Source of the DNA: a virus
Taxonomy: Duplodnaviria; Heunggongvirae; Uroviricota; Caudoviricetes
Length of the DNA: 7,343 nucleotides
Direction: 5' to 3' (one strand)
Virus record (IMG/VR): IMGVR_UViG_2737471865_000005
Location: 1 to 7,343 of that record
Shown: positions 1 through 7,343 of the stretch, in pieces
Layout of the letters: the number at the start of each line of letters is the position of its first letter
Numbering within the stretch: position 1 is the first letter of the stretch
Notes under the pieces: model-generated
The model's input: only the letters and a program-made list of their open reading frames with translations
Database searches by the model: none
What the model was told of the DNA's origin: nothing
Translations under genes and position numbers: made by a program

Positions 1-137
1 CTTATTCGCACCTTCCCTAAGGGATGGGACGTTTTTACGGGGAGAGCAGGTTAAAGAGACGATACGAAAAAATGTATCTCCTCTTGAACGTTACCGTAAG
101 AACAAAGAACGATAGTTGCGTTTTGGGAATATGAATT

Positions 138-479
138 ATGGCAATTAATGGCGCTGCAGCAACTGTTCCATTAAGCCCCGGTGAACGCCTGAATGGACTT
201 AATCATATTGCGGAGTTAAGGGCGAAAGTTTTTGGCCTGAATATTGAGTCAGAGCTTGAGCGGTTTATTAAAGATATGCGTGATCCACGGGATATCAATA
301 GCGAACAAAATAAACGGGCACTGGCTGCCATATTCTTTATGGCAAAAATTCCAGCTGAACGTCACAGCATCAGCATTAATGAGCTGACCACTGACGAAAA
401 GCGGGAGTTGATTAAAGCAATGAATCATTTTCGTGCAGTAGTGAGCTTATTCCCCAGACGACTAACCATGCCGAATTAA
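138..479 (+). CDS. Hypothetical phage early-region protein (113 aa)
   Basis: Intact ORF starting at an ATG, codon usage similar to neighbouring phage genes, same strand as and immediately upstream of the replication operon. A weak GGGAA Shine-Dalgarno-like sequence lies upstream. I do not recognise a family. Confidence 0.65.
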   Translation: MAINGAAATVPLSPGERLNGLNHIAELRAKVFGLNIESELERFIKDMRDPRDINSEQNKRALAAIFFMAKIPAERHSISINELTTDEKRELIKAMNHFRAVVSLFPRRLTMPN

Positions 480-546
480 CAAACTAATGAACTTCATGGC
501 GTAAACACGCCGGGTATCCCTTTACCTAAATTCAGGAGAATTGATT

Positions 547-780
547 ATGCGTAATATTGAAACCCTCACGACTAAAACCGGACCGGATGATGCAGGGCTT
601 AATATTTTACTGACAGAGGCTCGTCTGGAAGAACGCCGGGCAAGAGCTGAAGCAATGGCAGCTCGCCTTGATAGCCTTGCGTGCCATATCACATCCCGCC
701 AGCTAAACCACGTTGAAGCGGCTGAACTGCTGCGTGTGGCAGCTGAAGCAATCCAGAACGAAGCGCAGGAGATCCACTAA
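547..780 (+). CDS. Hypothetical small phage early protein (about 78 aa from the ATG at 547; the track ORF begins at a TTG at 541)
   Basis: AGGAGA Shine-Dalgarno about 8 nt upstream of the ATG at 547. The TAA stop overlaps the ATG of the next gene (TAATG at about 778-782), suggesting translational coupling. Alanine/arginine-rich, probably helical; function not recognised. Confidence 0.7.
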   Translation: MRNIETLTTKTGPDDAGLNILLTEARLEERRARAEAMAARLDSLACHITSRQLNHVEAAELLRVAAEAIQNEAQEIH

Positions 781-1007
781 TGGCTGATGCAATGGATCTC
801 GTACAGCAGCGCGTTGAAGAAGAACGCCAGCGTCATATCCGTACTGCCCGTGCCAAAACGCCGGGCGTGTCCCGCGTGCTTTGCATTGAGTGTGAAGCGC
901 CAATTCCGCCAGCACGCCGCCGTGCCATTCCGGGTGTGCAGCTTTGCATTACCTGTCAGGAAATCGCAGAGCTGAAAGGCAAACATTACAACGGAGGTGC
1001 TGTATGA
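780..1007 (+). CDS. TraR/DksA-family C4-type zinc-finger protein (75 aa)
   Basis: Two Cys pairs with sequence context typical of DksA/TraR-type zinc fingers (CIECEAPIPPARRRAIPGVQLCITCQ), of a size typical for phage TraR-like proteins. The stop overlaps the start of the next gene (ATGA at 1004-1007). Confidence 0.8.
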   Translation: MADAMDLVQQRVEEERQRHIRTARAKTPGVSRVLCIECEAPIPPARRRAIPGVQLCITCQEIAELKGKHYNGGAV

Positions 1008-1861
1008 GCACCATCCTGAAATGGGCGGGAAATAAAACCGCCATTATGTCCGAACTGAAAAAGCATCTTCCTGCTGGCCCGCGACTGGTTGAACCTTTCG
1101 CGGGTTCCTGTGCAGTGATGATGGAGACGGAGTACCCCAGCTATCTTGTTGCGGATATTAATCCTGATTTAATCAACCTCTATAAAAAGGTTGCTGCTGA
1201 TTGTGAATCATTTATATCTCGCGCCAGAGTTTTATTTGAGATCGCAAACAGGGAGGTAGCTTATTACAACATAAGGCAGGAGTTTAATTACTCAACTGAG
1301 ATTACTGATTTCATGAAAGCGGTATATTTCCTGTATCTCAATCGTCACGGTTACCGTGGTTTATGTCGCTATAACAAGAGCGGGCATTTCAACATTCCCT
1401 ACGGTAATTATAAAAATCCGTATTTCCCTGAAAAAGAAATTCGCGCATTTGCAGAAAAAGCCCAGCGAGCAACGTTTATCTGCGCCAGCTTTGATGAAAC
1501 GCTGGCGATGTTGAAGGCGGGGGATGTGGTGTATTGCGATCCGCCGTATGACGGTACGTTTTCCGGCTATCACACTGATGGTTTCACTGAAGATGACCAG
1601 TATCACCTGGCATCCGTTCTTGAACATCGGTCATCAGAAGGACATCCGGTCATTGTTTCTAACAGTGACACATCCCTGATCCGTTCGCTGTATCGCAATT
1701 TTACTCACCACTATATCAAGGTAAAACGCAGCATCGGTGTGGCAGCTGGCGAGGGTAAATCAGCAACAGAAATCATTGCTGTTTCCGGGCCGCGCTGCTG
1801 GTTGGGATTTGATTATTCGCGTGGCGTGGATAGTTCTGCCGTGTACGGAGTGCGTGCATGA
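1004..1861 (+). CDS. dam: DNA N6-adenine methyltransferase, Dam-like (about 285 aa from the ATG at 1004; the track ORF extends upstream to 944)
   Basis: N-terminal motif I region ([11 protein letters not shown]) followed later by the catalytic DPPY motif ([12 protein letters not shown]), the order seen in Dam-type (alpha-class) adenine methyltransferases. GGAGGTG Shine-Dalgarno at about 994-1000 precedes the ATG at 1004. The stop overlaps the GpA start (ATGA at 1858-1861). Confidence 0.9.
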
Positions 1862-4245
1862 GCCATGCTGATATGAACAACTGCAGCGGCTTTAACGAGG
1901 CCGCCGCAGCATTCTCATGGAACAGCCCGAAAAAGGCTATTAACCCTTATCTGGACCCGGCGGAAGTTGCGCCGGTTTCTGCGCTTTCAAACCTGATCAC
2001 TCTGTACGCTGCCGATAACGAGCAGGAACAACTGCGCCGCGAGGCACTGAGTGATCAGGTCTGGGAGCGTTATTTCTTTAATGAATCCCGTGATCCTGTC
2101 CAACGCGAAATGGAGCAGGATAAGCTCATTAGCCGGGCAAAGCTGGCGCATGAGCAGCAGCGTTTTAATCCGGACATGGTCATACTGGCGGACGTTAAAG
2201 CCCAGCCCTCCCATATCAGCAAGCCGCTGATGCAACGTATTGAATACTTCAGCAGCCTGGGCAGGCCAAAGGCTTATTCCCGCTATTTGCGTGAGACGAT
2301 TAAGCCATGTCTGGAACGACTGGAGCATGTACGCGACAGTCAGCTATCCACTTCTTTTCGCTTTATGGCAAGCCATGAAGGGCTGGACGGCCTGCTGATC
2401 CTGCCTGAAATGAGTCAGGATCAGGTGAAACGCCTGTCTACTCTTGTCGCTGCGCATATGAGCATGTGTCTTGATGCCGCTTGTGGTGATTTGTACGCCA
2501 CCGATGATGTTAAGCCAGAAGAAATCCGCAAGACATGGGAAAAGGTGGCAGCAGAAACCCTGCGACTGGATGTCATACCGCCTGCGTTTGAGCAACTCCG
2601 CCGGAAAAGAAACCGCCGTAAACCCGTACCCTATGAACTCATTCCGGGTTCGCTGGCGCGTATGTTGTGCGCCGACTGGTGGTATCGGAAATTATGGAAG
2701 ATGCGTTGCGAATGGCGGGAAGAGCAGTTGCGTGCTGTTTGCCTGGTCAGCAAAAAAGCATCTCCCTATGTCAGCTATGAAGCCGTGATGCATAAACGTG
2801 AGCAGCGCCGTAAGTCGCTGGAGTTTTTCCGTTCTCATGAACTGGTGAACGAAGACGGCGACACGCTGGATATGGAGGACGTGGTAAACGCCAGTAGTAG
2901 CAACCCGGCGCATCGCCGCAATGAGATGATGGCATGTGTTAAAGGTCTGGAGCTTATCGCGGAAATGCGCGGTGACTGCGCCGTTTTCTACACCATCACC
3001 TGTCCGTCACGTTTCCATTCCACGCTAAATAACGGCAGGCCCAACCCAACCTGGACAAATGCGACGGTAAGACAAAGCAGTGATTATCTGGTCGGCATGT
3101 TTGCTGCATTTCGTAAGGCGATGTACAAAGCCGGATTGCGCTGGTATGGCGTGCGGGTGGCTGAGCCGCATCATGACGGTACAGTTCACTGGCACCTGTT
3201 GTGTTTTATGCGCAAAAAAGATCGCCGCGCCATTACTGCTTTGTTGCGTAAGTTTGCCATCAGTGAAGACCGCGAGGAGCTGGGTAATAACACAGGACCA
3301 CGCTTTAAGTCTGAGCTGATAAACCCGCGCAAAGGTACGCCAACAAGCTACATCGCGAAATACATCAGTAAGAACATTGACGGGCGTGGTCTGGCTGGCG
3401 AGATCAGCAAGGAAACGGGTAAATCCCTGCGTGATAACGCTGAATACGTTAATGCCTGGGCGTCTCTTCATCGTGTTCAGCAATTCCGCTTCTTTGGCAT
3501 TCCGGGGCGTCAGGCTTACCGTGAACTGCGATTGCTGGCTGGTCAGGCGGCAAGGCAACAGGGGGACAAAAAAGCAGGTGCGGCGGTACTGGATAACCCA
3601 CGCCTTGATGCCATCCTGGCTGCTGCTGATGCTGGTTGTTTTGCCACCTACATCATGAAGCAGGGCGGCGTACTGGTTCCCCGCAAATATCACCTCATCA
3701 GAACCGCTTATGAAATCAACGAAGAGCCGACCGCCTATGGCGATCACGGCATTCGTATTTATGGCATCTGGTCACCCATTGCAGAGGGCAAGATCTGCAC
3801 TCATGCAGTGAAGTGGAAAATGGTTCGTAAGGCCGTTGACGTTCAGGAGGCTGCAGCCGACCAGGGCGCTTGCGCCCCTTGGACTCGTGGCAATAACTGT
3901 CCCCCTGTTGAAATTTTGAACCAATCAGGGGGCGAATTACCAGAAACCGAAGAAACTGACGCGCTGCCGGACCTTCACGATCTGAGTGCGAAGGAACGGC
4001 GGGAGCTGACAGCCAGGCTGAGGCTGGTAAAACCGAAACGGCGGAAAGGGTACAAACAGGAAGTTAACGAGCAGCAGCGCCAGCAGCTCGACGCTGAGTT
4101 GAGGTCCAGAGGGTTTGAAGCGAGTGAAACAGAGGTGGATCTGCTTTTACGTGGCGGCAGCATTCCGTCCGGGGCCGGGCTGCGCATTTTCTACCGCAAC
4201 CAGCGGCTACAGGAAGATGATAAATGGCGGCAGTGGTATTCGTGA
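1858..4245 (+). CDS. A: Rolling-circle replication initiation endonuclease, P2 GpA-like (795 aa)
   Basis: Size close to P2 gpA. Contains an HUH-type metal-binding motif (TVHWHLLCF) and a downstream Tyr-x3-Tyr pair (YIAKYISK), as expected for the HUH nickase superfamily. Follows Dam as in 186-like phages. In P2 the origin lies inside the A coding region, so an ori probably lies within this CDS, but I cannot position it. Confidence 0.92.
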
Positions 4246-4334
4246 GTATCGTCTGAATATTCCTGTTTGGTGATCCCATCAGAGGTATCTGATTGAAATT
4301 GAAAAAAGGGTTTTACAAATAGAAATCTCTTCTA

Positions 4335-4354
4335 TACTGTATATATAAACAGTG
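4335..4354 (+). promoter_or_regulatory. LexA operator (SOS box) within a putative SOS-regulated promoter
   Basis: TACTGTATATATAAACAGTG matches the E. coli LexA consensus TACTGTATATATATACAGTA at 18 of 20 positions, including the CTGT-N8-ACAG core. It sits in an AT-rich intergenic region about 50-65 nt upstream of the next + strand ORF, overlapping candidate -10 hexamers (TATACT/TATATA), with TTGAAA/TTTACA-like -35 candidates upstream. Confidence 0.75.
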
Positions 4355-4401
4355 GATATACATACAGTTATGTTTGTCCAGTAGTAGTGATAGGAGGGAA
4401 A

Positions 4402-4590
4402 ATGCAGGATTACCTTTTGGAGTCTTTGAAGCTCCAGCGCATTGATTTTTTTATCAAGCTTGTAGCGGCTAGCGAGTGTGATGATGCAGAAAAGCAGCTG
4501 GCTCTTCAGTGGGCTTCTGAGTTGACCGATGAGCTGATGGCGAAAATTCGTAGCCATGAATACAGCCGATCAATGGATATTTCCAGTTAG
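4402..4590 (+). CDS. Small SOS-module protein (62 aa from the ATG at 4402), possibly the N-terminal portion of a Tum-like antirepressor
   Basis: AGGAGG Shine-Dalgarno at about 4392-4397 with the ATG at 4402. First gene after the LexA box, at the position tum occupies in phage 186. Followed 8 nt later, in another frame, by a DinI-like ORF; the two together total about 140 aa, close to the roughly 146 aa I recall for 186 Tum. Confidence 0.55.
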   Translation: MQDYLLESLKLQRIDFFIKLVAASECDDAEKQLALQWASELTDELMAKIRSHEYSRSMDISS

Positions 4591-4598
4591 GGGTCCCT

Positions 4599-4832
4599 AT
4601 GCGAATTGAGATAATGATCGATAAAGAGCAAAAGATTAGCCAGGTAACCTTGGACGCTCTGGAGTCCGAGCTTTACCGCAACCTGCAGCCCATCTATCCA
4701 AAGACAGCTATTCGCATCCGTAAAGGGTCGGCAAACGGCGTTGAGCTGAGTGGCTTAAAGCTTGATGAAGACAAAAAGCGGGTAATGGAAATTATGCAGC
4801 AGGTTTGGGAAGACGACAGCTGGCTGCACTGA
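4599..4832 (+). CDS. DinI-family protein (77 aa); may correspond to the DinI-like C-terminal half of a Tum-type antirepressor
   Basis: Aligns by eye with E. coli DinI along its whole length (MRIE start, DAL..EL segment, K-E/D-D-K-K/Q-R, EI(L/M)QxxWE near the C-terminus). Lies in the LexA-controlled module. Confidence 0.85.
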   Translation: MRIEIMIDKEQKISQVTLDALESELYRNLQPIYPKTAIRIRKGSANGVELSGLKLDEDKKRVMEIMQQVWEDDSWLH

Positions 4833-4936
4833 GGAACGTTGCTGGCGGCAGGACTTGATACTGACGCCAGCAAGGTTGAACAACGAGCGGGGCGAGGCGT
4901 TAGCCCATCATTGGTACTTTATAATGGTTTTGTTAT

Positions 4937-5923
4937 CTATAATTGCAGAATGTTTTTAATTCTCACAATCGATTCATCAAAAGTATCAGCTATGTGGTAA
5001 ATGTTCTTTTTGCTCAAGCTATTAACCCAGGTGATAGTAGATTCTTTATCCTTGTCTACTATGTAGACGTCGGCTGAAGTTTTTTCAATTTCAGACCAAA
5101 TATGCTCATCATTTGGATTTATTTTAAGTCCAATAATGAATATCTTGGATGAACGTTCAACCTCAGAACGAAACTCTTCCTGCTGATACTTAACAAATGA
5201 GGGGCAGTGCAATACGCTTTTTTTGGGATGATATAATGCAACTGCGGGTGAGAGGGCAGAATCACTTTCGCAGTATGCAATCACGTCTTGCTCATCGTTG
5301 TAAATATCAATTGAACCATCGAATATTGCAGAGTTCTCGCAATCAGGTAATTCGAAATCGATATTAACGATATTTGCAACTGGTATGAAGTTTACTGAGC
5401 CATGTATTTTTAATACCGGTATGTTATTTCTATTGCGCTTCGATGAGTGATATTGAACAAGACAGCCAACAGAGCATATAGCTTGTTCAATTAATAGGTC
5501 GTAATTAGTTGTTGCCATACATATGTTTTTTCTTTTTTTTAATAGGTTAAACAGTTTTATGTAGGTGTTTCCTTTCTCGACCCGAAATTGTGCAAGATAG
5601 GCGCACATCTGCTTTAGGAGGTGAGTTGTCTCGCAATTTCGTTCATTGAAAAAATTAATCATTCCTTGTTCAGGATCTGCAATGAAACTCTCCAATAGAG
5701 CGCCATCAATAGTTGAAGCAACTCCACCTTTTTCACGCATGCGGATAAGCAGATCTTTACCAAGAGGTGGATTGGATGGACTACATGGACCGCTGCCAAA
5801 ACTCGCACCTGCGCCAAATAAAAATAGAACTGCCATATATCCTCCGAAATATGAGTATTTATGAATCATTTTCCTCAATTTCTGCCACAAAGGATATAGT
5901 GGGGCAAAGGAATTGTGCTGCAT
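4937..5923 (-). CDS. SIR2 (sirtuin)-like family protein, candidate NAD+-consuming anti-phage defence protein (328 aa as the longest ORF; alternative starts give 310 or 299 aa)
   Basis: Glycine-rich NAD-binding motif FLFGAGASFGSG (GAGxS type), a TTNYD motif resembling sirtuin TQNID, and KIHGS about 34 residues later, where defence-type SIR2 domains carry the catalytic His. The gene is markedly AT-rich (about 30-37% GC in the 60-nt lines I counted, against about 50% in the flanking phage genes). Start is ambiguous: the ATG near 5836 is preceded by GGAGGA, the ATG near 5869 by GAGGA, and the first ATG (5923) has no obvious Shine-Dalgarno. Confidence 0.8.
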   Translation of the reverse strand: MQHNSFAPLYPLWQKLRKMIHKYSYFGGYMAVLFLFGAGASFGSGPCSPSNPPLGKDLLIRMREKGGVASTIDGALLESFIADPEQGMINFFNERNCETTHLLKQMCAYLAQFRVEKGNTYIKLFNLLKKRKNICMATTNYDLLIEQAICSVGCLVQYHSSKRNRNNIPVLKIHGSVNFIPVANIVNIDFELPDCENSAIFDGSIDIYNDEQDVIAYCESDSALSPAVALYHPKKSVLHCPSFVKYQQEEFRSEVERSSKIFIIGLKINPNDEHIWSEIEKTSADVYIVDKDKESTITWVNSLSKKNIYHIADTFDESIVRIKNILQL

Positions 5924-5973
5924 GACTATGCCGCATGAATCCGCATGATCGTTTGAGGATCGTTTTAGCTGAG

Positions 5974-6000
5974 GCCCGCCAGGAATGGCGGGCTTTTGCT
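5974..6000 (+). terminator. Putative rho-independent terminator, + strand orientation
   Basis: Perfect 8-bp GC-rich inverted repeat GCCCGCCA / TGGCGGGC around a GGAA tetraloop, followed directly by TTTTGCTT. The T-run is only on the + strand side. Confidence 0.5.
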
Positions 6001-6043
6001 TATGTCATGCAGGCGCATGAAAACCACTACATAAAGCGGGCAG

Positions 6044-6062
6044 GCGTGGCGGGGATACGAGC
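6044..6062. other. Candidate cos site (cohesive-end region) of a P2/186-like phage
   Basis: GGCGTGGCGGGGATACGAG shares its first 13 nt with the 186 cohesive end as I recall it (GGCGTGGCGGGGAAAGCAT) and is close to the P2 version (GGCGAGGCGGGGAAAGCAC). It lies between the SOS/cargo region and the portal gene, where cos is expected. Relies on recalled sequences. Confidence 0.5.
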
Positions 6063-6150
6063 GCGCGCAATGGGGTAAAATGGCCAAAATCCGGAGCAGC
6101 CTCTGGCCCGCTGGCGGCCTCATTTTGTGTAGGAGGGAAAATGTCAGGAC

Positions 6151-6183
6151 AAAAAAACGCCCCGCAGAATGCTGCTGGGGCGT
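6151..6183 (-). terminator. Putative rho-independent terminator of the late packaging (P-Q) transcript
   Basis: On the - strand, about 40 nt downstream of the portal stop codon: GC-rich hairpin (ACGCCCCGCAG / CTGCTGGGGCGT with one bulge) followed by a run of seven U (A7 on the + strand at about 6151-6157). Confidence 0.6.
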
Positions 6184-6219
6184 TGTGAGAATTGGTCAGT
6201 TATTGATGTTGTGAGTATG

Positions 6220-7269
6220 TCAGCCTCGTTTGCTCTTAAGTCCTAAGTCATAGGCTTCAAAACGGATCACCTCTTCACCAAGCCAGTTGTTAAGCTCCTG
6301 CAGTCGCTTTTGCAGTGGCATCAGTTCATTGCGGACGAAAACACGGCTCGCCTTTTCCACATCACCGAAGCCGCCAGTGTTGTTGGGAATGATACCCATC
6401 ATTTGCGGCGGTACGCGGTGTGCCGCCATCATGTCGTCCCGACTCACGTTCTTGATGTTCAGAAATTCATCTTTCGCTGCGACTTCTGACAACGGGATGA
6501 TCTGAAGCCCGTCCTTTTTGCCGTTAGGCGAGTACATAAACAGGTTACGGAAGTTACCAGGACCTTTGGCACTTTTCATCGCGTTGCGGAGATTGTTCAC
6601 ATCCTCCTGATTCTGCGCTGCATCGGTCATGTACATGATGAAGCCAGCATGACTGCCGTTAATGTAATACTTTCGACGGAACAGCGTGGCGGACTCGTTG
6701 AGCAGGGCGGATGGAATGGCAGAAAGGTAACCTGGCAGACCATAAATCTCCTGGTTGATATCCGGCTCCATCAGGTGGAAGACGTTACCTTTTGTGAACT
6801 GATACGGCTGTGTCGTCAGGCTGTATTGCACAAACCAGTATGTTTCAAGGTCAAGCCCGCGCCGGGTGTATTTTGCCAGTGCAGGCTCCAGCGAAATAAC
6901 TTCACCGAACCGGTTCGTGCGCTTCTCCAGGTAGCCGTTACCAAAAACCAGATAGTCCTGCACAAAACGGGTAAATGCCTGCTGACTGAGAAGACGATGC
7001 GGAATATAGGTACTGCTGATAATGTCACGCTTAACACTGATGGGGGAGCTGTGATGCACGGCGGCGCGGAAGGTTCGCGCCAGGCCGTCAAAACTCACTG
7101 GCGGCTCATACCAGCGATCTGTCTGTACGCATTCCACATAGTCCAGCAGTTCGCGGCGGTCCAGAACAGGAACAGGATCGCCAAAGCTGAAAGCCTCTGC
7201 TGTTGGGCCATTGCCTGGTTTTGAATTGTGATCAGTTGTTGCTCGCTTATTATTTCTACGTTTGCTCAT
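6220..7269 (-). CDS. Q: Phage portal protein, P2 gpQ-like (349 aa)
   Basis: Full-length ORF of the size of P2 portal protein (about 344 aa), with N-terminal region resembling gpQ as I recall it (basic N-terminus, then AEAFSFGDP.PVLDR...RWYEPPVSF.GLARTFRAAVHHSS). Positioned next to cos and transcribed towards it, as in P2/186. Confidence 0.92.
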   Translation of the reverse strand: MSKRRNNKRATTDHNSKPGNGPTAEAFSFGDPVPVLDRRELLDYVECVQTDRWYEPPVSFDGLARTFRAAVHHSSPISVKRDIISSTYIPHRLLSQQAFTRFVQDYLVFGNGYLEKRTNRFGEVISLEPALAKYTRRGLDLETYWFVQYSLTTQPYQFTKGNVFHLMEPDINQEIYGLPGYLSAIPSALLNESATLFRRKYYINGSHAGFIMYMTDAAQNQEDVNNLRNAMKSAKGPGNFRNLFMYSPNGKKDGLQIIPLSEVAAKDEFLNIKNVSRDDMMAAHRVPPQMMGIIPNNTGGFGDVEKASRVFVRNELMPLQKRLQELNNWLGEEVIRFEAYDLGLKSKRG

Positions 7270-7343
7270 TCTGCCAGCTCCTCGTTAGCGAGAGGCCATT
7301 CGCACATAAACAGCATTTTCCAGTCCTCTGCTGATAATTCTTT
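7266..7343 (-). CDS. P: 3' end of the large terminase subunit gene (P2 gpP-like), partial, continuing beyond the window
   Basis: A - strand frame is open from the window edge and ends in a TGA that overlaps the portal ATG (ATGA), the classic coupled P-Q junction. Deduced C-terminus is ...EDWKMLFMCEWPLANEELAE. Only about 25 codons are visible, so the identity rests on synteny. Confidence 0.5.
   Translation of the reverse strand, partial: KELSAEDWKMLFMCEWPLANEELAE

Follow-up and report, generated by a model that had tools for sequence, protein, structure and literature searches.

We analyzed a 7,343-nucleotide stretch of viral DNA (positions 1 to 7,343 of the IMG/VR record IMGVR_UViG_2737471865_000005; referred to as the window), which is the right end of a P2-like prophage of Escherichia coli (Fels-2/PsP3-type, Peduoviridae). 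A stretch of the window that is low in guanine and cytosine (GC) and contains a SIR2-like gene is very probably a horizontally exchanged cassette of about 1.0 kb, located in the first of the two cargo slots on either side of the cos module in the gpA-gpQ hotspot of this prophage; it carries a lone SIR2-fold gene, and the terminator of the SOS operon lies beyond it. The cos-adjacent region between gpA and gpQ of P2-like phages is well established as a hotspot for anti-phage systems and further accessory genes (Rousset et al. 2022, PMC9122126; Vassallo et al. 2022, PMC9519451; a 2026 survey in Nucleic Acids Research, PMC13586616). The stretch has the position of this hotspot, since the window contains gpA (replication endonuclease) at 1858-4245, cos at 6043-6061, and the portal protein gene on the minus strand at 6220-7269 (the gpQ homologue, called as phage portal protein by the annotation pipeline PGAP).

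The GC content is 37.4% over positions 4904-5918 (1015 bp) and 50.6% in the rest of the window, where the lowest 1015-bp interval has 47.3% or above. At third codon positions, the GC content of the SIR2-like gene is 0.34, compared to 0.58 for gpA and the portal gene, a foreign composition such as hotspot cargo has. The abrupt drop coinciding with the SIR2-like gene, as reported in a preliminary description of this DNA, is thus confirmed by measurement. It does not, however, set in directly after the stop codon of the DinI-like gene (4832), as had been stated: the following 71 nt (4833-4903) have a GC content of 58-62%, and the fall occurs at approximately 4904. GC content recovers at approximately 5900-5925. 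Other low-GC stretches were observed at 4246-4400 (37.5%, the intergenic SOS promoter region), 1100-1500 (about 40%, within the Dam methylase gene), and 1-600 (42-44%, around the DUF5347 gene), indicating that the SIR2 island is not the sole compositional dip in the window.

Relatives were taken from three sources: GenBank phages, E. coli genomes, and 80 IMG/VR loci encoding a DinI-like protein. Both anchors of slot 1, GAGGCGTTAG on the left and TATGCCGCATGA on the right, are present in 84 related phage and prophage loci. The slot is empty in 49 of them, including Yersinia phage MLG42, where the DinI stop codon is followed by an RNA hairpin, GAGGCGTTAG, a 16-nt linker, and then the same repeats and terminator as in the window. 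The remaining loci contain cargos of approximately 280, 967, 973, 1023-1056, 1230, 1277, 1315, 1855, 1986 or 2877 bp, all with a GC content of 0.34-0.46. Every cargo begins directly after GAGGCGTTAG (position 4903 in the window) and stops directly before (G/T)TGCATG(A/T)C (position 5919, where the window reads TGCATGAC). At least ten unrelated cargos, in either orientation, use these two junctions. When independence was judged by unrelated adjoining sequence, at least six left and at least ten right junctions were counted, falling on the same nucleotide ±1. The region thus varies between conserved flanks, as the gpA-gpQ hotspot does, and the cargo-less relatives bear out the earlier proposal that the low-GC stretch is an insertion. 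Its bounds had been put at about 4875-5970 and had to be moved: comparison with the empty sites and the unrelated cargos places the junctions between 4903 and 4904 and between 5918 and 5919, which defines the cassette as 4904-5918.

To the right of the cassette, the segment 5921-6067 with the repeats, the terminator and cos is 84-100% identical in all DinI-containing loci that extend through the region. Among 5426 complete E. coli genomes, the flanks were found in 1267 and the cargo of the window in four, two of which carry an allele that is about 75% identical. Two more SIR2-like alleles with about 72% nucleotide identity occupy the same slot in the same orientation in loci L008 (1641-2567) and L066 (approximately 6373-7271), and the non-coding ends of these cassettes have diverged. 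Such diverged alleles point to long residence or repeated acquisition of the cargo.

The only gene in the cassette lies on the minus strand at 4937-5836 and encodes a protein of 299 amino acids (PGAP product WP_140442209, named hypothetical protein). Its start is the ATG at 5836, which is preceded by a GGAGGA Shine-Dalgarno sequence, and PGAP calls the same 299-amino-acid product. A longer, mechanically called open reading frame reaching up to 5923 was rejected, as its first ATG sits in a TGCATGA repeat of the phage backbone. With the start at 5836, the promoter of the gene is expected mostly inside the cargo, at 5837-5918. Inspection by eye gave weak candidates only, e.g., TATATC at 5897-5892, and we claim none of them.

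The AlphaFold2 model of the protein has a mean predicted local distance difference test score (pLDDT) of 94.4 and a predicted template modeling score (pTM) of 0.91, and all 299 residues form the SIR2 core. In a Foldseek search, the best match was SIR2 of SIR2-HerA (E 8e-10), followed by sirtuins, ThsA and Avs5, at TM-scores of about 0.5-0.6 and 13-18% identity; the probability was 1.00 for SIR2 of SIR2-HerA, sirtuins and ThsA, which identifies the SIR2 fold. A database search revealed a family of homologues of about 300 amino acids in Enterobacteriaceae, Pseudomonas and Vibrio, and many close homologues carry a precomputed hit to the Pfam family SIR2_2 (PF13289). Residues G8, G10, A11, S12, N111, Y112, H145, G146 and S147 are invariant in 43 homologues down to 30% identity. 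They belong to the motifs GAGAS, TTNYD and KIHGS, that is, to the NAD-binding and catalytic motifs. Distant homologues, likewise solitary, are located in a P4-like element of Pseudomonas (between integrase and AlpA), in a 186-like prophage of Vibrio (next to the integrase), and in Pantoea (close to a DinI gene). The protein shares with the SIR2 NADases of SIR2-HerA, Thoeris (ThsA), DSR1/DSR2, SIR2-APAZ/pAgo and Avs5 a SIR2 Rossmann fold, a glycine-rich NAD motif, and conserved Asn and His motifs; unlike them, it has no HerA neighbor, no SLOG, STAND or APAZ domain, and no large C-terminal sensor. Assignment to a named defence system was rejected, since PADLOC, NCBIfam and PHROGs gave weak partial matches at most (one weak match in the case of PHROGs). 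Judging from the modeled fold, the motifs and the context, the protein is most likely a single-protein effector of abortive infection or exclusion that depletes NAD+.

Upstream of the cassette, a LexA box (TACTGTATATATAAACAGTG, 4335-4354, plus strand, with CTGT-N8-ACAG at 4337-4352) was read from the sequence in the promoter region preceding two plus-strand genes. The first, orf62, encodes 62 amino acids (4402-4590; a 189-nt coding sequence in PGAP; phrog_698, E 5e-34), and the second is a DinI-like (TumB-like) gene for 77 amino acids (4599-4832; Pfam DinI, E 9e-24; phrog_189). The DinI-like gene in the Fels-2 record is noted as similar to PsP3 TumB. The position of the LexA box upstream of orf62 indicates that the two genes form an SOS operon like p95-tum of phage 186. 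This promoter region would be the equivalent of p95, which is annotated in the 186 record as a promoter in front of tum and likewise has a LexA site.

Beyond the cassette, a predicted intrinsic terminator that is also a position-conserved palindrome of the cos region lies on the plus strand at 5974-6001. It consists of the stem GCCCGCCA (5974-5981), the loop GGAA, the stem TGGCGGGC (5986-5993) and the tail TTTTGCTT, and folds with -25.2 kcal/mol (z = -3.9; none of 200 shuffled sequences folded as well). A stem of 8 bp with seven G-C pairs and the tail UUUUGCUU gives it the structure of a Rho-independent terminator. Read on the minus strand, the hairpin is followed by CTCAGCTAAAAC without a U tract, and the terminator is thus specific for the plus strand. 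A consensus promoter and terminator scan missed it, probably due to a G-T/A-T extension of the stem that uses up the T tract. No credible plus-strand gene is located directly upstream of it in the window. In relatives with an empty slot, by contrast, the terminator starts about 135 nt past the DinI stop codon and has the co-oriented SOS operon as its upstream unit, from which it is separated by the cassette in the window. The suggestion that this stranded terminator is the ancestral end of the SOS operon is therefore supported, as it directly follows the operon in the 49 cargo-less loci. Loss of the terminator from relatives without the SIR2 gene had been named as the finding that would speak against this; the terminator is kept, whatever the cargo, in 79 of the 79 related loci in which terminator and cos anchors were located.

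The distance from TTTTGC to cos is fixed at 43 nt in all related loci with located anchors. The T tract reads TTTTGC, TTTTAC or TTTTTC, and TTTCGC in one locus. The commonest substitutions in the stem (GCCCGCTAG, TGGTGGGC and GTCCGCC) are C-to-T changes that keep G.U pairing on the plus-strand RNA only, and disruptive changes occur in three loci. At a comparable distance from cos, phages 186 and P4 each have an upstream palindrome in which the stem differs (CGCCAG/CTGGCG and CCGCGCC/GGCGCGG, respectively) and a T tract is lacking; P2 has no palindrome at the corresponding position. In the 186 record, t95b, the terminator of the p95 (SOS) transcript, is annotated in the same interval before cos. 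It (AAGACCGGTACTATTAAAGCCGGTTTTTTT) sits 22 nt past the motif shared with the window (see below), and its sequence is unrelated to that of the window terminator. Homology of the two was therefore rejected, the positional counterpart in 186 being the palindrome without a T tract; the window terminator and t95b are functional analogues only. The hairpin may be an old feature of the cos region that serves as a terminator in this lineage.

The left flank of slot 1 begins with the hairpin already mentioned (4835-4877, plus strand), which forms an 18-bp helix and contains the 9-bp inverted repeat of 4839-4873, with the arms TTGCTGGCG (4839-4847) and CGCCAGCAA (4865-4873). Its folding energy is -26.4 kcal/mol (z = -3.1). 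In an alignment of 21 distinct sequences, that of phage 186 among them, 93.9% of the cells are paired, and 11 pairs have changed on both sides. The covariation score of 0.394 was reached by none of 500 shuffled alignments (0.215), and slid controls gave 0.118 at most. Hence, structure rather than sequence is conserved in this element. In sequences with G.U pairs, the plus-strand RNA is much more stable than the minus-strand RNA (e.g., -23.5 versus -11.0 kcal/mol), and we therefore read the hairpin as part of the SOS transcript. The inverted repeat, which had been seen as a feature of the island edge, is real as sequence, but it belongs to a covarying RNA hairpin of the operon backbone. It has no U tract on either strand. 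An Rfam search over 4200-6300 returned no match at E ≤ 1, which places both this hairpin and the terminator outside the described RNA families. The left hairpin may act in the processing or stability of the RNA, or as a partial attenuator.

The hairpin is followed by the conserved motif GGTTGAACAACGAG-N6-GAGGCGTTAG (4874-4903, plus strand), which is near-invariant in 45 distinct sequences including 186 and forms the left boundary of slot 1. In plus-oriented cargos, the first ATG is found 2-3 nt past GAGGCGTTAG, which places GAGG at the distance of a Shine-Dalgarno sequence. Many of these cargos open with a conserved gene for 85-86 amino acids with the pattern MGxKD..YQ(I/V)VY, as observed in L005 (2100-2360) and just past GAGGCGTTAG in L048, L060, L068 and L070; it may represent a third, semi-conserved member of the SOS operon. 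Because the left hairpin lacks a U tract and plus-oriented cargos have no room downstream of it for a promoter of their own, it is probably not a full terminator. We infer that, by default, slot 1 serves as an expression slot belonging to the SOS operon.

The right boundary of slot 1 is at the same time the start of the cos module and is formed by three tandem (T/C)GCATGA repeats spaced about 10-13 nt apart (5919-5948). The first is TGCATGA at 5919, and CCGCATGA occurs twice, at 5931-5938 and 5941-5948. Of the seven copies of GCATGA in the window, four fall within 5920-6020. In an alignment of the window with 186, P2 and P4 over the 125 nt left of cos, the triple (T/C)GCAT repeat lined up in all of these phages. 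The 10-nt unit ATCCGCATGA is present in four tandem copies in L067 (approximately 8292-8340) and in two in the window (5927-5948), indicating that the repeats left of cos vary in copy number. Next comes the direct repeat GATCGTTT (5947-5965; copies at 5947-5954 and 5958-5965) with two Dam sites in the arrangement GATC-N7-GATC. The GATC pair (5947-5961) is retained in 84 of the 85 compared sequences, including those that differ in the 7 nt in between, and is absent from the aligned regions of 186, P2 and P4. A phage Dam methylase is encoded in all 74 loci with enough upstream sequence, and the pair could be a methylation-sensitive packaging site or a SeqA-type site.

The cohesive-end sequence itself, GGCGTGGCGGGGATACGAG (6043-6061), is followed by CGCGCGC (6062-6068) and lines up with the sequences annotated as cosR in P2 and as cos in 186. 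The boxes flanking it, GCAT-AAAACC and AAGCGGGC, align with P2, 186 and P4. The packaging region is known to be common to P2 and P4, as stated in a passage of PMC9122126, and the CCGCATGA repeats, being part of it, are not the SIR2 promoter. The short repeats and the GATC pair that the preliminary description had noted at 5925-5970 do exist; they are present at empty sites as well, and both CCGCATGA and GATCGTTT were assigned to the cos module instead of the promoter of the SIR2 gene. A boundary motif shared with P4 was considered and dropped: CCTTGAACAACG occurs in a P4-like flank listed in Table S2 of Rousset et al., but not in the first 2.6 kb of the P4 reference. We also rejected an open reading frame of 47 amino acids at 5935-6078 (plus strand) as a gene, as it runs across both the terminator and cos and would be interrupted in the DNA of virions. 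The record of Yersinia phage MLG42 (PP599993) lists it as a hypothetical protein, probably a spurious call.

Slot 2 (6068-6148) lies between cos and the portal operon and is empty in the window, where the gap between cos and the portal terminator measures 96 nt, compared to 96-100 nt in other empty loci. Relatives with cargo at this place, namely L002 (from 2258 onward), L003 (from 2260 onward) and LF82, diverge directly past CGCGCGC (approximately 6068), and the gop-beta-cII cargo of P4 starts at the same point. The slot is occupied in many relatives by Hypoth_Ymh, DUF4145 and other genes, as in L009 (2713-3523). On its far side, the minus-strand intrinsic terminator of the portal/terminase operon (6149-6184; -20 kcal/mol, z = -4.5, followed by U7) is the equivalent of tW, which is annotated past the portal gene in the 186 record. 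The 150-bp cos module is thus bracketed by two cargo slots and two convergent terminators.

Several observations weigh against reading the locus as a defence cassette in front of an SOS-operon terminator. In a consensus scan, the SIR2 gene showed no sigma-70 promoter. The Pfam SIR2_2 score (23.6 bits, residues 136-178 of the mechanically called frame of 328 amino acids) stays below the gathering cutoff of 24.5, the SIR2 models of PADLOC match weakly (best E 1e-5 over about 35 residues), and a search of NCBIfam returned no family for the protein. As the only gene in its cassette, it is accompanied neither by a sensor domain nor by a partner gene of the kind that multi-part SIR2 systems have (SIR2-HerA, Thoeris, DSR, pAgo-SIR2, Avs5), and tblastn against 50,697 phage records found no homologue. 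What argues for a defence role is the predicted fold together with the genomic context. With regard to transcription, both the termination at 5994-6001 and the read-through of the left hairpin are points that we infer. The T tract of the terminator is short (four U, then GC, then UU), and since the palindromes of 186 and P4 have none, the conservation of this element could be owed more to packaging than to termination.

Part of this evidence would also fit a gene that is not directed against phages and has another role in the prophage or host, such as protein deacylation or ADP-ribosylation, anti-defence, or lysogenic conversion. The protein has no significant match to validated defence families, its solitary state fits such a role, and according to a passage of Rousset et al. 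2022 (PMC9122126) the hotspot also holds partition systems and toxins. On the other hand, the best structural match is the NADase SIR2 of SIR2-HerA, ahead of the deacetylase sirtuins, and the GAGAS, TTNYD and KIHGS motifs do not vary. Moreover, homologues recur as solitary genes at accessory (moron) positions of satellites and prophages, and the slot corresponds to that of old and tin in P2. We therefore consider a non-defence role unlikely and favor an anti-phage NADase. Regarding the way in which the cassette arrived, the precision of the junctions on both sides might suggest a site-specific or transposon-like insertion. However, no target-site duplication, no terminal direct or inverted repeats (at 4904 and 5918), and no recombinase were found in the cassette. 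The permissive gap between the two constrained flanks is only about 8 nt, and selection alone could produce the observed precision; in addition, the 2026 survey reports almost no transposable elements in such hotspots (PMC13586616). Such an insertion is very improbable in our view, and the cassettes would probably be exchanged by recombination within the conserved flanks.

A more serious competitor, which we hold to be possible although we lean against it, is that the palindrome at 5974-5993 is mainly a packaging signal of cos at the DNA level, e.g., a site for terminase or a host factor, with termination incidental or absent. Its fixed spacing to cos and its near-invariant sequence in all related loci in which both were located agree with this, as do the palindromes with other stems and no T tract at a comparable distance in 186 and P4. 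Since P2 lacks a palindrome there, however, the element is not universally required for packaging. The T tract is conserved in this lineage, and the commonest stem changes preserve pairing in the plus-strand RNA only. Furthermore, 186 (t95b) and P4 (a hairpin of TGCAT repeats followed by T's) each have another plus-strand terminator upstream of cos, which argues that termination before cos is what has been selected for. The two roles are not exclusive. The preliminary description had offered two further functions for the terminator, insulation of the SIR2 promoter or termination of a small RNA, in place of ending the SOS operon. The terminator does lie on the strand opposite to the SIR2 gene, 138 nt upstream of the start of that gene, and the conserved repeats and the GATC pair in 5919-5973 could in principle be regulatory. 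These functions found no support, though: the same module is present, nearly unchanged, in the 49 cargo-less loci and beside cargos of either orientation, the consensus scan detected no promoter-like site on either strand, Rfam gave no match at E ≤ 1, and the repeats can be aligned with those near cos in P2, 186 and P4. We regard them as hardly credible and retain the end of the SOS operon as the function of the terminator.

Taken as an SOS-operon terminator, the element suggests how the locus would work. In an empty slot, the operon would run from the LexA-controlled promoter through orf62, the DinI-like gene, the hairpin and the motif, and would end at the palindrome and T tract. Rightward SOS transcription, and any early transcription, would be halted by the hairpin and T tract 43-49 nt before cos, so that induced transcripts would extend neither across cos nor antisense into the portal gene; the convergent terminator of the portal operon would do the same job from the other side of cos. 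In the window, the operon and its terminator are separated by a leftward cassette, placed like old and tin in P2, and SOS transcripts would consequently cross the SIR2 gene in antisense before ending. The SIR2 gene would be transcribed leftward from a promoter of its own within approximately 5837-5920, in the geometry of P2 old and tin. Its SIR2-fold product would most likely deplete NAD+ and thereby abort infection by competing phages. More speculatively, and with little confidence on our part, the convergent layout might act as a switch: SOS transcripts would run through SIR2 in antisense for about 1 kb to 5974-6001, and transcriptional interference or antisense RNA would lower the level of a potentially suicidal NADase during phage replication, such that a cargo in slot 1 would be SOS-induced if plus-oriented and SOS-silenced if minus-oriented.

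The backbone of the window is that of a chromosomal prophage. Bases 4800-6100 are 99.9% identical to the chromosome of E. coli A38 and 99.8% identical to that of 22AR0750. The gene order of the A38 locus in RefSeq is CI, CII, Fil, DUF5347, DUF2732, TraR/DksA, Dam methylase, gpA, a 62-amino-acid hypothetical protein, the DinI-like protein, a 299-amino-acid hypothetical protein on the opposite strand, portal and terminase. The phage-encoded Dam methylase gene occupies 1004-1861.

Comparison with P2 shows both the family resemblance and what is particular to the window. In P2, old and tin are located on the minus strand, with an mRNA start about 150 bp left of cos. The P2 genes, like the gpA-gpQ hotspot as a whole, occupy the same place as the window cargo, between the replication gene region and cos/portal, and vary among otherwise similar phages; the window cargo likewise reads leftward from a start near cos and belongs to a defence-associated domain family. 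It is, however, an uncharacterized SIR2-fold protein of 299 amino acids and neither Old nor Tin, and P2 lacks the 186/PsP3-type SOS operon downstream of which this cargo sits. The SOS operon of 186 (p95, tum, t95a, orf97, t95b) has a LexA-controlled promoter, a DinI-domain gene and a final plus-strand terminator upstream of cos, as does the window. Phage 186 also resembles the window in having an accessory gene between tum and the final terminator, and the hairpin followed by GGTTGAACAACGAG and GAGGCGTTAG. Unlike the window cargo, orf97 is plus-oriented and stands upstream of the hairpin and motif, after the partial terminator t95a, which is specific to 186.

In terms of its biology, the locus is an ordinary case of the well-described low-GC defence cargo in the cos-adjacent hotspot of P2-like phages. 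What it adds is the anatomy of this hotspot at the nucleotide level, with two slots around a 150-bp cos module, a left boundary resembling a Shine-Dalgarno sequence, a right boundary made of cos repeats, and a covarying hairpin, each slot facing a terminator that points towards cos. Two slots around cos with nucleotide-precise boundaries are not described in the passages at hand of the hotspot papers (PMC9122126, PMC9519451, PMC13586616), and a map of this kind explains the sharpness of the cargo boundaries. The cargo itself represents an uncharacterized family of unusually small (299 amino acids), solitary SIR2-fold proteins carried in accessory slots of phages and satellites, and is a candidate anti-phage NADase.

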